Positions 42,511-51,816 are shown, numbered from the stretch's first letter. The stretch: DNA of 64,000 nucleotides from an uncultured Ignavibacteriales bacterium (GCA_964520865.1 CAZFOY010000010.1:4303-68302), one strand, 5' to 3'. The notes: a model not told the origin generated them from the sequence alone. Translations and numbers: made by a program.

Positions 42511-44835
42511 GTGAGTTTTCGAGGACATAGAGCGTTACTAATCGGACTGGCGATACTGATTGGTGCCGGAGTTAGAGCAGCGACTCTGGACGAGTCGATG
42601 GTTGCCCCCCGGGTCGAAGTCCGGTCTTCGAAAACGGTCGTCACTTGTGAAGGCTTTGATTCGATCACCTTAGGCGCAGATCTAACCCTGCCAGCCAGAA
42701 CTTTTCTGGTCGAGCTGAGCCCTACCGAGTCCAATCCGCAATTCACAGCCACCATCGGCGAAACCACTATTCTCGGACGGGTCGACCGTTCCCTGATGTA
42801 TTCGGACGGGACAACTTCGGACCGGCCGTATGAATATGCCGGCATTACTTCATTCCCGGCCGCTGAGCTGCTCGGACAAAGCCCGGTTGATTTGACAGAT
42901 ATTGTCACGATCAACAACCGGAAGTATGCCCGCCTGCTGTATTTCCCGGTCACCGTGGACAGCCTGAACCATCTGGTTTTCGCTCAACAAACGGACTTGA
43001 AGCTTGACGGAAATCTGCTTTCGTCGGCGCAACTCCTCCCTCCGGATCTCAAGCGAGCGGCACTATCCGACAAATCGAGCCGGACAGGTGAGATCCTTTC
43101 CGCCAACGGACCGAAGTACCTCTTAGTTACCAGCGCTCTTCTCGATTCGACGTGCGAGGAACTGGCGGCCTACAAACGCGAGACCGGGTACGACGTTCGG
43201 GTGGAAGATATCGACGAAATTCTTTCGACGTACTCAGGACGCGATGATGCCGAGAGATTGAGAAATCGCCTCAAGTCCTTTTATGCCGAAGGCGGCGAAT
43301 ACGTGCTCCTGGCCGGGGATGAAACCCAGCTGCCGATACGATACGCCTACCCAACGATGACCTCGTCCATGCCCGACACGGCCGATCTTCAGGTTTGCGA
43401 CCTCTATTTTGCCGATTTGACCGGCGAGTGGGATTCGGACAGCGATGGTGTCTGGGGAGAGAAGTATGCCGATCAGGCCGATCTGACTCCGGAGCTGATG
43501 CTCGGACGTCTGCCCTTCTCCCGCCCTGAGGAAGTGACCAACTACACGAACAAACTGATCGCCTACGAAACGAATCCCGGACACGGCGACCTGAGCTATC
43601 TCACCCGGGCCTTTTTCTATTCGTCCGATCAGATGCGTGACTATGGCGACGGCGGCGAACATGGTCTGATCGCGGCAGCCTATCCCTCGAACTTTCAGAT
43701 TGATACCACCAACGGCATAGAACAGTCGCGGGGGGACGACGTCAATCCGACCAACCTGTCGGCCGGTGAAACGATTCCGGTTCTCTCTTCCGGCTACGGA
43801 ATAGTAAATGTCATAGCTCATGGCCGATCGGATGCATTCGGCGTACGCACGACCGGATACAACGAGTGGCCCAAGTCGTACTTCATGACCACCGATGTCG
43901 GCGGAACAAACGGCGATGCCAACGGCATGGAACCGAACGGAAAGACGTCGTTCTACTATTCTCTCGCTTGCGACAACGGCGGATTCGATCTCGATCAACC
44001 CCCGATGAACGAACCTGACCCGAATCTGGTCGAGACCCTGCTCGGACTGCCGGATGCCGGCGCGGTTGGTTTCGTGGCCCACACGCGCTGGGGATGGATA
44101 GCTTCGAGCCACCTGGTTCAGAAAACGTTCTTTGATTCTCTTTTCGCCCATCCGGGCCGCCCGGCCGTGTGCGCCATGTACGATACCAAGGCGGTCTTCT
44201 ACTACTATCGCGATCAGGTCTACGGCATAAACTACTTCGGTGATCCGACTCTCAGAGTCTACACCGGGACTCCCCACACACTCTCGCTGTCGACCTCCAC
44301 CGGAAGCGGAAACGTATTGGTTTCCGTTAACGATGAATCAGGCCAGGTCACGGCCGCAACCGTGATTGTGAGCCTCAACGGTCAGCCGATTTTCGACGGA
44401 GTCACGGATGCGTCAGGACAAGTCAATTTACCGATCGATTTCTATGAAGACAGCACGTACACGATAGCTGCGATCAAGACAGGTGCGACAATCGGATTCA
44501 AGTCGATTCATCCGTCGATCGTCACCGACGTCAACGAGTCCAACGACCAGCTTCCCCGGAATTTTGAACTCGCCCAGAACTACCCGAATCCGTTCAATCC
44601 TTCGACGACGATTGAATTCAGCCTACCGACTCGTAGCAGGATTGTGCTTGAGGTATTCGACGTACTCGGCAGAAAGGTACGCACGCTGGCTGAAGGCAGT
44701 TATTCCAGCGGGAATCGTGAAGTTGTCTGGGATGGCAAAGCAGTCGATGGATCGCAGGTATCAAGCGGCGTCTACTTCTACCGTCTGCAGGCGGGCGCTT
44801 TCAGCGCAACCAGGAAGATGCTACTGCTCAAGTAG
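42511..44835 (+). CDS. Gingipain-like C25 cysteine peptidase with signal peptide and Por-type/FlgD-Ig C-terminal domain
   Basis: SD aggagg before GTG 42511; signal peptide ending GVRA; YVLLAGD, DLYFADLTG, LGRLP, catalytic IAHG and LACDNG; tail QNYPNPFNPST..WDGK..SGVYFYRL..RKMLLLK. Confidence 0.88.
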   Translation: MSFRGHRALLIGLAILIGAGVRAATLDESMVAPRVEVRSSKTVVTCEGFDSITLGADLTLPARTFLVELSPTESNPQFTATIGETTILGRVDRSLMYSDGTTSDRPYEYAGITSFPAAELLGQSPVDLTDIVTINNRKYARLLYFPVTVDSLNHLVFAQQTDLKLDGNLLSSAQLLPPDLKRAALSDKSSRTGEILSANGPKYLLVTSALLDSTCEELAAYKRETGYDVRVEDIDEILSTYSGRDDAERLRNRLKSFYAEGGEYVLLAGDETQLPIRYAYPTMTSSMPDTADLQVCDLYFADLTGEWDSDSDGVWGEKYADQADLTPELMLGRLPFSRPEEVTNYTNKLIAYETNPGHGDLSYLTRAFFYSSDQMRDYGDGGEHGLIAAAYPSNFQIDTTNGIEQSRGDDVNPTNLSAGETIPVLSSGYGIVNVIAHGRSDAFGVRTTGYNEWPKSYFMTTDVGGTNGDANGMEPNGKTSFYYSLACDNGGFDLDQPPMNEPDPNLVETLLGLPDAGAVGFVAHTRWGWIASSHLVQKTFFDSLFAHPGRPAVCAMYDTKAVFYYYRDQVYGINYFGDPTLRVYTGTPHTLSLSTSTGSGNVLVSVNDESGQVTAATVIVSLNGQPIFDGVTDASGQVNLPIDFYEDSTYTIAAIKTGATIGFKSIHPSIVTDVNESNDQLPRNFELAQNYPNPFNPSTTIEFSLPTRSRIVLEVFDVLGRKVRTLAEGSYSSGNREVVWDGKAVDGSQVSSGVYFYRLQAGAFSATRKMLLLK

Positions 44836-50302: not shown

Positions 50303-51816
50303 AGTGCGATCAATATACAGCTTATTGATATTGTTAACAAGAACGACCATCGACCGACCACATCGCCGTACCGGGTAAAGACGGAATAGCCGTTCAGGGA
50401 GTTCAATTTACCGATCAGCGACTCGGCCCGGTAGATCGGGATACTCTCCCGTATCCGCCCATAATTGTCCACTATATACGTGAGCCCGCTGTTGCCGACC
50501 CGTGCCCCCCAAATACGATTTTCGACACATCGGGTGACGAATATCCGGGAATGCATGTAAATACCCACCGACTTCCCGAACCAGGTGTCGTTCGTTATTC
50601 CGACCAGGAAATCGGCCCCGCTAAGAACATCGCCACGGACAAACTCCGGAAAAGTCGACTCGAAGCAGATCAGCACAGCGTACAGATGGTCAGGCAGTTT
50701 GAAAAGGTGTGCCGAATCCCCCGGGTAGAAGTCCGACCACCACTGAACGGTCGTGCCGATAAACGTCAGGTACTTTCGCAAGAAGTCCTGCTCAAGGAAT
50801 CCGAGATAATCCTGGTAAGGAACATGTTCCGAGAACGGGACGAGCTTTACTTTGTCGTATCTCGACTCCATCCTCCCCTCCTTGTTGAATTGGAAGCAGG
50901 AGTTGAAATAACGCATCTTTCCTTTGATATAGGAGGCGCCCAGCCCTCCTACGAGGTCATATGACTTTGACTCGATGGCGATATTTCCGACCTCCGTCCG
51001 ACAGGCCAGATCATGAGTCAAATAACACGGTACTGCCGTTTCCGGCCAGATATACAAACCGACCGTCGAGTCGGCGATTTCTCCGGTGAGGTCGTTGTAA
51101 ATGCTGAACGCCTTGAATTCGTTGCCTCTCTCCCACTTCACATCGAGCGGCACATTCCCCTGTAGCAAAGCCACTTTGAATTTCCCCGGCACCGGGTACT
51201 TGGGCATCTCAATCCACCCGTACGACCAGAGACCGCCTACAATAGCCAGCGACACAAACACTGCCGTCACCCTTCGTTCCGGACTTACATCCGATCGGAA
51301 CACCTGCCAGAGCAGGACATTTACGGCAACGATGACAAACGACAATCCATGCGCACCGATTACCGACACAATCTGGAGAACGTTCAGGTAATACGCCTGG
51401 GAGTAACCGAGATCCGACCAGGGGAAGGCAAACTGAGAGAGGGTACGGAAGTATTCCATACCGACCCATAGGAACGGAACGGCGACACAACCGAACAGCG
51501 GCCTGAATCGATAGACTTTGTTGAAGATCACGAGAATGGCCGCATAATAGAACGCCACGATAATTATCGAAGCGAGGATTCCCGGGATAGTCACCTGAGC
51601 TACCCAGTAGAGCGAAAAAAGGTTGAAGAAGAAGCCGAAGAAATAGGCAGCGTTGAAGGCCGGCCTCCCCTTCAGAGAACTAATGATCATCAGTGGCCTG
51701 ATAAGCGAGAACCAGGCGAGAAAACCGAAAAAGCCGGGATAGAATGACAGGGAAAGTAAAAACGACCAGATCATTAATTCCAGTCGTCGTTTACGTAGTT
51801 CGATGTCTGCCGGCAC
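50260..51816 (-). CDS. lnt: Apolipoprotein N-acyltransferase (start may be ATG 51774)
   Basis: Polytopic N-terminus, FPWSDLGY, LLQGNVP, triad motifs WPETA, YDKVKLVPFSE, LICFES, TNDTWFG, ENR. Confidence 0.93.
   Translation of the reverse strand: MPADIELRKRRLELMIWSFLLSLSFYPGFFGFLAWFSLIRPLMIISSLKGRPAFNAAYFFGFFFNLFSLYWVAQVTIPGILASIIIVAFYYAAILVIFNKVYRFRPLFGCVAVPFLWVGMEYFRTLSQFAFPWSDLGYSQAYYLNVLQIVSVIGAHGLSFVIVAVNVLLWQVFRSDVSPERRVTAVFVSLAIVGGLWSYGWIEMPKYPVPGKFKVALLQGNVPLDVKWERGNEFKAFSIYNDLTGEIADSTVGLYIWPETAVPCYLTHDLACRTEVGNIAIESKSYDLVGGLGASYIKGKMRYFNSCFQFNKEGRMESRYDKVKLVPFSEHVPYQDYLGFLEQDFLRKYLTFIGTTVQWWSDFYPGDSAHLFKLPDHLYAVLICFESTFPEFVRGDVLSGADFLVGITNDTWFGKSVGIYMHSRIFVTRCVENRIWGARVGNSGLTYIVDNYGRIRESIPIYRAESLIGKLNSLNGYSVFTRYGDVVGRWSFLLTISISCILIALWILAKFSHKRSQS

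Follow-up and report, generated by a model that had tools for sequence, protein, structure and literature searches.

A lnt, PorZ-like, FemAB-family and GT4 gene chain conserved across Zixibacteria, a candidate linker-glycan module of type IX secretion

The gene chain and its conservation

A 64,000-nucleotide stretch of DNA from an uncultured Ignavibacteriales bacterium (GCA_964520865.1, CAZFOY010000010.1:4303-68302; the whole stretch is called the window below) carries five minus-strand genes encoding an apolipoprotein N-acyltransferase (Lnt), a propeller protein resembling PorZ from type IX secretion systems (T9SS), a FemAB-family protein and two GT4 glycosyltransferases (GT4a and GT4b). A sixth gene, encoding a C25-family cysteine peptidase, converges on them. 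A previous sequence-only reading had proposed the five genes as a surface-anchoring module, chained by overlaps. Their open reading frames (ORFs) and junctions were confirmed, and the family labels given there held in family scans, weakly in the case of GT4b:

50260-51816, minus strand: lnt, apolipoprotein N-acyltransferase, 518 amino acids (aa); opens the gene chain, with gpmI 40 bp upstream on the same strand
48074-50302, minus strand: PorZ-like protein, 742 aa (ORF 48074-50350, likely start at 50302); Sec signal peptide, two beta-propellers with Reg_prop, divergent type-A C-terminal domain (CTD)
47145-48074, minus strand: FemAB-family/Acetyltransf_6 protein, 309 aa, lacking a signal peptide; candidate VimA-like aminoacyl transferase
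46072-47145, minus strand: GT4a glycosyltransferase, 357 aa (ORF 46072-47211, likely ATG at 47145, within the TGATG junction)
44828-46087, minus strand: GT4b, GT4-like glycosyltransferase, 419 aa, or 415 aa from a start at 46075 (GTGA); closes the chain in the window
42511-44835, plus strand: C25-family cysteine peptidase with a type-A CTD, 774 aa (ORF 42307-44835, 842 aa); convergent to the operon

All junctions were read base by base. The stop codon of lnt (TAG, 50262-50260) lies beyond the ATG of the PorZ-like gene at 50302, giving a 43-bp overlap. The following genes are joined through TAATG (PorZ-like/FemAB), TGATG (FemAB/GT4a) and GTGA (GT4a/GT4b), with an alternative GTG start for GT4b 12 nt upstream of the GTGA start. 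The 3' ends of GT4b and of the C25 gene share 8 bp (44828-44835), which leaves no space for terminators. The database gene call for the C25 protein (P0121, 745 aa) begins at an ATG at 42598 and has no signal peptide. A GTG at 42511, with AGGAGG 4 nt upstream, gives a protein of 774 aa with a typical signal peptide (MSFRGHRALLIGLAILIGAGVRAA), so that the P0121 start is probably mis-called.

Homologues of the propeller and C25 proteins came almost entirely from metagenome-assembled genomes of Candidatus Zixiibacteriota/GN15. The window itself was assigned to a Zixibacteria metagenome-assembled genome of salt-marsh origin. A locus scan using one genome per species yielded 66 Zixibacteria-type loci and 12 loci from other lineages of the Fibrobacteres-Chlorobi-Bacteroidetes (FCB) group. 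Gene order was read by searching these loci with the window proteins in tblastn and blastp, and the counts take only loci with enough flank. The order was near-universal: purM-gpmI-lnt-PorZ-like-FemAB-GT4a-GT4b, the convergent C25 gene and then mraZ-rsmH-ftsL-ftsI. The lnt gene stood immediately upstream of the PorZ-like gene at 46 of 49 loci, and FemAB directly downstream of it at 51 of 53. GT4a, GT4b and C25 were in place at 46/49, 39/43 and 29/34 loci respectively, gpmI at 33/45 and purM at 30/36. The order lnt-PorZ-FemAB-GT4-GT4 was thereby held in about 90-96% of the species-level Zixibacteria loci, and the synteny of lnt, FemAB, GT4a, GT4b and C25 with the PorZ-like gene was tighter than that of the housekeeping neighbour gpmI.

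The overlap between the lnt and PorZ-like ORFs was repeated in nearly all orthologous loci; it is otherwise unexplained and argues for co-expression of the two genes. The gene arrangement is well beyond chance and recurs in about 50 species-level Zixibacteria genomes. Judged by junctions and synteny, the five genes are one tightly coupled predicted transcription unit conserved across the phylum.

The few exceptions were informative. Two loci (L052 and L064) retained PorZ-FemAB-GT4-GT4-GT2-C25 and had no lnt, a third (L060) retained lnt-PorZ without the glycan genes, and in a fourth (L051) PorZ was retained and FemAB was truncated. The propeller gene is thus the hub of the locus, with a link to lnt that can be parted from its link to the glycan genes. 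Accessory genes were also found in relatives. In about 20 other Zixibacteria species, GT4b and C25 are separated by a GT2 gene of about 290 aa, which is missing here, where the two 3' ends overlap by 8 bp; the window lineage therefore appears to have lost it. Three divergent species have a GalE-like NAD-dependent epimerase/dehydratase gene between the PorZ-like and FemAB-like genes (L053:12243-13253, L057:8617-9624 and L063:8965-9972, plus strand), and two have an AsnB-like gene between GT4b and C25 (L022:15379-17316 and L027:7290-9098, both minus strand) with a weak match to TIGR03108 (XrtA/PEP-CTERM system amidotransferase). The GT2, GalE-like and AsnB-like genes point to the locus as a glycan-building site.

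The same Zixibacteria-type operon was present, at 40-60% identity, in three loci labelled Calditrichaeota or Deferrimicrobium (L031, L049 and L066), whose contigs are probably mis-binned or mislabelled.

Affinities of the encoded proteins and the surrounding window

The PorZ-like protein scored 127.8 bits against NF052228 (T9SS anionic LPS delivery protein; LPS, lipopolysaccharide), under the curated cut-off of 260. Other Zixibacteria orthologues scored 107-134 bits, and five flavobacterial proteins from the locus scan, which are true PorZ, 678-697 bits. An AlphaFold (AF2) model built from 20 homologues (mean confidence, pLDDT, 85.4) had PorZ (5M11) as its top Foldseek match (E 8.7e-29, template modelling (TM) score 0.65/0.64). 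The next-best fold matches were double-propeller sensor domains from the hybrid two-component systems (HTCS) of Bacteroides (TM 0.33-0.35). The 5M11-type domain architecture is present in the predicted structure, namely a signal peptide, two beta-propellers and a C-terminal CTD beta-sandwich. In a sequence search of the PDB with the PorZ-like profile, HTCS sensors ranked above PorZ. This ranking was discounted as evidence against PorZ because the HTCS scores are made up of many short Reg_prop repeats, while the PorZ match is one collinear stretch, and because the fold search reversed the order.

Aligned with hhalign, the Zixibacteria and true-PorZ alignments matched end to end (99.94%, E 6.8e-37, 694 collinear columns). 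However, the Zixibacteria profile scored a non-PorZ Bacteroidales propeller-CTD protein at 183 and a single true PorZ at 179, indicating that profile similarity alone is not decisive for orthology. Consequently, hhalign was dropped as an orthology test and replaced by an analysis of domain offsets with a hidden Markov model (HMM) of true PorZ. The best domain lay at matching positions in 48 of the 60 Zixibacteria proteins. Several of these proteins matched as a single domain (HMM positions 8-775), and others as an N-terminal piece (offset near 0) plus a C-terminal piece. By contrast, the six propeller-CTD controls, drawn from WOR-3, Melioribacter, Cytophagales and Bacteroidales, matched solely through many short, repeat-slipped hits to one repeat-rich region of the HMM, with offsets from -511 to +259. 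The CTD of the PorZ-like protein is degenerate against TIGR04183 (17.6 bits, cut-off 23), as in true PorZ, whereas three of four cargo-like propeller proteins reached 33-52 bits and the fourth 25.8.

On these comparisons the propeller protein is best read as a distant homologue that keeps the PorZ architecture and is collinear with PorZ over its full length, and orthology is plausible. The earlier identification of this protein as PorZ stands in that form; it falls short of the 260-bit cut-off, and profile similarity does not separate the protein from other propeller-CTD proteins.

Propeller-CTD proteins were also encoded at five loci from WOR-3, Melioribacter and an unclassified bacterium (L067-L071), four of them of 734-754 aa and one of 1039 aa. 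These loci have no lnt, FemAB or GT4 neighbours, and the three of the five proteins that were scanned with the PorZ model scored 89-136 bits with repeat-slipped matches.

The FemAB-like protein matched Acetyltransf_6 (PF13480) at 62.9 bits (cut-off 22) and, weakly, FemAB (21.1 bits), which places it in the Fem-type double-GNAT family. Its only NCBIfam match was TIGR03019 (pepcterm_femAB; 57.6 bits, E 1.1e-15, positions 8-288 of 330), below the cut-off of 260.35. The only PDB matches of the family profile under E 0.1 were aminoacyl-tRNA-dependent transferases, all weak (E 0.002-0.07): FemX (1ne9, E 0.002), FmhB (6snr) and a peptide synthase (9wqw). VimA of Porphyromonas gingivalis was reported to match TIGR03019 by Veith et al. 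(2020), and sets whether serine or glycine goes onto the T9SS linking sugar (PMC7468200). The parallel with VimA drawn earlier agrees with the best NCBIfam match, which lies below its cut-off. GT4a has clear GT4 N- and C-terminal domains (Glyco_trans_4_2, 72.9 bits; Glycos_transf_1, 47.2 bits), and in NCBIfam it gave sub-threshold matches to exopolysaccharide (EPS) and PEP-CTERM-associated GT4 families and nothing more. GT4b gave sub-threshold matches to Glyco_trans_4_4 (27 bits) and to TIGR03088 stp2 (23 bits).

Lnt scored 259.7 bits against TIGR00546 (cut-off 132.9) and contains the LNT_N (PF20154) and CN_hydrolase (PF00795) domains. It matched the solved Pseudomonas aeruginosa Lnt (5n6m) at 138.6 bits, and the WPE, KxKLVPF and CFE catalytic motifs (Glu-Lys-Cys) are conserved.

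A CTD profile and motif scan of the 64 kb detected exactly two ORFs with a type-A CTD, the PorZ-like gene and the convergent C25 gene. The sequence-only reading had likewise counted two CTD proteins near the operon, and had missed the C25 identity of one of them. The C25 protein matched Peptidase_C25 (PF01364) over its full length at 171.6 bits and Por_Secre_tail at 33.9 bits, and it has an Ig-like domain and a canonical type-A CTD. Its His/Cys dyad (H408 and C458, P0121 numbering) aligned with RgpB and was invariant in 22 orthologues. The best NCBIfam matches were PorU models, with NF033707 at 85.5 bits against a cut-off of 420. When the family profile was compared with the PDB, RgpB was matched in the catalytic domain and PorU in the CTD alone, and phmmer of the C25 protein against the PDB found FlgD-like Ig domains only. 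In Foldseek, the predicted fold was nearest to RgpB and Kgp (TM of the target 0.68-0.76), and PorU (6za2) came sixth (TM 0.26/0.19). The neighbour was therefore rejected as PorU, as profile and fold searches favour the gingipains. It is a candidate for either a sortase-like partner or a conserved cargo protease; that it is the sortase-like partner of the PorZ-like operon, as its phylum-wide fixed position might suggest, is speculation.

Two further genes in the window relate to T9SS regulation:

19891-21456, minus strand: PorX, response regulator with a PglZ domain; NF052313 T9SS_RR_PorX, 652.6 bits, full length
21460-22722, minus strand: histidine kinase, PorY candidate, directly upstream of porX

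PorX is an equivalog-level match (cut-off 300), encoded just after serS and 26 kb from the PorZ-like operon, and as such it shows that predicted T9SS regulation is present in the genome. The histidine kinase gave generic matches alone (HATPase_c and a weak HisKA), with no PorY-specific match. Of the PorXY pair described before, PorX is thus well founded and PorY depends on adjacency to porX. No match to porK/L/M/N or sprA was found among the large ORFs taken as genes in the window, a part of which was scanned by Pfam only, in agreement with the previous account. The label "non-canonical type IX-like system" given there is unsupported, as it draws on 64 kb only. In full-text literature searches, no paper named Zixibacteria together with T9SS or type IX secretion.

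The remainder of the window consists of housekeeping genes (valS, serS, metG, folC, accD, ftsA/Z, the dcw cluster mraZ-murC, purM, gpmI, pdxJ and others). The operon lies directly upstream of mraZ-rsmH-ftsL-ftsI-murE, with the convergent C25 gene standing between it and the dcw cluster. Promoter and terminator scans were uninformative (10 promoter-like elements vs. 7.7 ± 2.9 in shuffled sequence; 18 terminator-like elements vs. 12.5 ± 3.2), and tRNA and Rfam scans gave no matches. The exact sequence is present in DNA runs, which are salt-marsh metagenomes. A solitary short flagellin gene (24611-25420, minus strand, 269 aa) lies between serS and ftsZ; the organism therefore seems to possess flagellar genes alongside T9SS-type CTD proteins. 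Just upstream of purM is encoded a protein with a SagB-type peptide dehydrogenase domain (54515-55327, minus strand; TIGR03605, 144.7 bits), and a PopA-family porin-like outer-membrane protein with a sub-threshold score (60.3 bits, cut-off 150) and no Pfam match at 3815-5029 (minus strand).

A possible linker-glycan module and the alternatives

The last four genes of the chain (PorZ-like, FemAB-like, GT4a and GT4b) may form a T9SS-associated module for the synthesis and presentation of a linker glycan. We favour this reading tentatively and rate it a little short of an even chance; every biochemical step in it is inferred. In P. gingivalis, PorZ binds anionic LPS (A-LPS) and hands it on to the sortase PorU (PMC8545088). 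Through its VimA-family match and its PorZ homology, the Zixibacteria operon would unite in one unit counterparts of both parts of this anchoring chemistry. The cytoplasmic FemAB/VimA-family enzyme would add an amino acid to an amino sugar, providing a free amine. The two GT4 enzymes, joined in many relatives by a GT2, would build the aminoacylated sugar into a lipid-linked glycan. Once this glycolipid has been exported, the secreted double-propeller PorZ-like protein would bind it on the cell surface, as PorZ does with A-LPS, and might pass it to a cysteine transpeptidase acting to replace the CTDs of secreted proteins. Speculatively, this transpeptidase could be the convergent C25 peptidase, which is conserved at the locus.

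PorZ homology, the TIGR03019 match, the conserved gene order and PorX all agree with the earlier suggestion that the operon makes an amino-acylated linker glycan presented through PorZ. Several results weigh against it. The PorZ-like protein is below the curated PorZ cut-off, and hhalign scored a control protein as highly as a true PorZ. The C25 protein is closer to the gingipains than to PorU in both sequence and fold, and NCBI never names it PorU. The NCBIfam matches of the FemAB-like protein and the GT4 enzymes are all below their cut-offs, and they fit generic or PEP-CTERM-type EPS loci equally. Neither a VimE-type CE4 deacetylase nor a Wbp family was found among the operon genes or the annotated ORFs of the window, and the additions in relatives were confined to the GT2, GalE-like and AsnB-like genes. 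The conserved order held within Zixibacteria, but coupling of lnt, FemAB and GT4a/b to PorZ or a PorZ-like gene was not found, using HMMs of the Zixibacteria families, at the 12 loci of the small non-Zixibacteria sample (WOR-3, Melioribacter and Bacteroidota). Housekeeping genes (purM, gpmI and the dcw cluster) share this synteny, so that colinearity alone is weak functional evidence. The T9SS core genes were not seen in a view limited to 64 kb, and no RNA runs contained the sequence.

The alternative that survives best is a generic EPS or O-antigen-like operon, in which the propeller would be a T9SS-secreted glycan-binding cargo protein or matrix organiser sharing ancestry with PorZ, the C25 protein a secreted protease, and none of the products would act in cargo attachment. 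The sub-threshold matches of GT4a, GT4b and the FemAB-like protein to EPS and PEP-CTERM-associated families fit it, as do the accessory GT2, epimerase and AsnB-like genes, which are typical of polysaccharide loci. The gingipain-like fold of the C25 protein fits as well, gingipains being cargo, and so does the inability of hhalign to tell PorZ from other propeller-CTD proteins. One of the HTCS double propellers, the next-best fold matches, is titled a heparin/heparan-sulphate sensor. However, cargo and EPS genes tend to vary, whereas the PorZ-like and C25 genes each occur once and are conserved at a fixed position throughout the phylum. The alignment with true PorZ stays collinear and takes in the N-terminal domain, unlike that of the control cargo-type proteins, and a VimA-family enzyme paired with a PorZ homologue corresponds to both of the halves known for anchoring chemistry in P. 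gingivalis (PMC7468200, PMC8545088). We regard the generic EPS operon as possible but rather unlikely.

A second alternative makes Lnt a chemical participant, in that the CTD proteins would be attached to a lipoprotein-type or N-acylated lipid anchor instead of an LPS-type one, or the module would build such an anchor. The 43-bp overlap with the PorZ-like start speaks for it, together with an adjacency (46/49) above that of gpmI or purM. Against this, the protein is a canonical Lnt over the equivalog cut-off with intact motifs, for which a housekeeping role is sufficient, and the loci without lnt (L052 and L064) or with lnt-PorZ and no glycan genes (L060) indicate that the two links are separable. 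We know of no T9SS anchoring step with Lnt chemistry. Most likely, lnt encodes an ordinary lipoprotein N-acyltransferase co-expressed for envelope biogenesis with no chemical part in anchoring. We therefore consider its participation improbable, and the earlier suggestion that lnt supplies a lipoprotein-type lipid anchor is unsupported, given the canonical motifs and the two loci that keep the rest of the operon without it.

Very improbable indeed is a role in peptidoglycan modification, with the FemAB-like enzyme adding branch amino acids to lipid II like FemX/FemABX and the locus belonging functionally with the dcw cluster. In its favour, PDB sequence matches were confined to FemX and FmhB, which aminoacylate lipid II or UDP-MurNAc-pentapeptide, and the operon lies directly upstream of mraZ-rsmH-ftsL-ftsI-murE. 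Against it, the FemX and FmhB matches are weak (E 0.002), the best family is the EPS-associated TIGR03019 and not a Fem equivalog, the FemAB-like gene is translationally chained to GT4 genes and a secreted propeller and not to mur genes, a convergent gene separates the dcw cluster, and MurE is of the meso-diaminopimelate type, which usually accompanies direct cross-links.

Implications and comparison with known systems

The PorZ, PorU and linking-sugar genes (vimA/E/F and wbp) of P. gingivalis were found by separate genetic and biochemical work. If the linker-glycan module is real, a phylum-wide operon would be independent comparative-genomic evidence for that anchoring pathway, and cargo anchoring would extend past the Bacteroidota into an uncultured FCB phylum. 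A stronger form, which we hold to be doubtful, is that of a compact and self-contained T9SS cargo-anchoring cassette, in which a distant PorZ orthologue is chained to a VimA-type transferase and GT4 enzymes and faces a gingipain-sized C25 protein acting as the CTD transpeptidase instead of the large PorU. In that case anchoring to an aminoacyl-sugar would predate the Bacteroidota, and the link between PorZ and glycan, deduced from biochemistry in P. gingivalis, would be written into the gene order of another phylum. The 309-aa transferase, the two GT4 enzymes and the 774-aa C25 protein would then be compact candidates bearing on the aminoacyl-tRNA donor and on a minimal sortase. Should the generic EPS operon be correct, the locus would amount to a polysaccharide operon of the ordinary kind, next to the gene for a secreted lectin-like protein related to PorZ.

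PorZ of P. gingivalis (PG1604, 5M11), a member of the PorU-PorV-PorQ-PorZ attachment complex, is of similar length to the PorZ-like protein (748-758 residues in the 5M11 chain vs. 742 aa). The two share a signal peptide, two Reg_prop propellers, a CTD weakly matching TIGR04183, a fold match of TM 0.65 and a full-length collinear profile alignment. They differ in sequence (about 19% identity), in a score at half the NCBIfam cut-off and in phylum. The five flavobacterial porZ loci are without the operon of lnt, VimA-family enzyme and GT4 genes seen with the PorZ-like gene. The C25 neighbour shares with PorU (6ZA2) and the gingipains the catalytic domain with its His/Cys dyad, the Ig-like domain and the CTD, and PorU models are its best NCBIfam matches, but the PorU chain has 1156 residues compared to 774 aa.

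With the Wbp/Vim pathway of P. gingivalis and Tannerella forsythia (VimA, VimE and VimF), the operon shares a TIGR03019-type enzyme encoded directly before glycosyltransferase genes. [quoted passage not shown] There, vimA, vimE and vimF are organised as an operon, and transfer of the linking sugar was proposed for VimF (PMC13086638). This operon was described without porZ (PMC8003790). More widely, VimA-like genes adjoin those of deacetylases, glycosyltransferases, AsnB-like amidotransferases and other sortase systems (PMC7468200).

The EPS loci of PEP-CTERM/exosortase systems (TIGR03019, stp2/stp3 GT4 enzymes and TIGR03108) share with the window locus the FemAB-family and GT4 genes, and the AsnB-like gene in two relatives, through weak matches. 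The sorting signal at the window locus is a T9SS CTD, and PEP-CTERM family scores are far under their cut-offs; neither an exosortase (EpsH/XrtA) nor a PEP-CTERM protein was found among the window ORFs. Veith et al. have already proposed that such EPS loci produce an aminoacylated sugar that serves a sortase-like enzyme as acceptor (PMC7468200).

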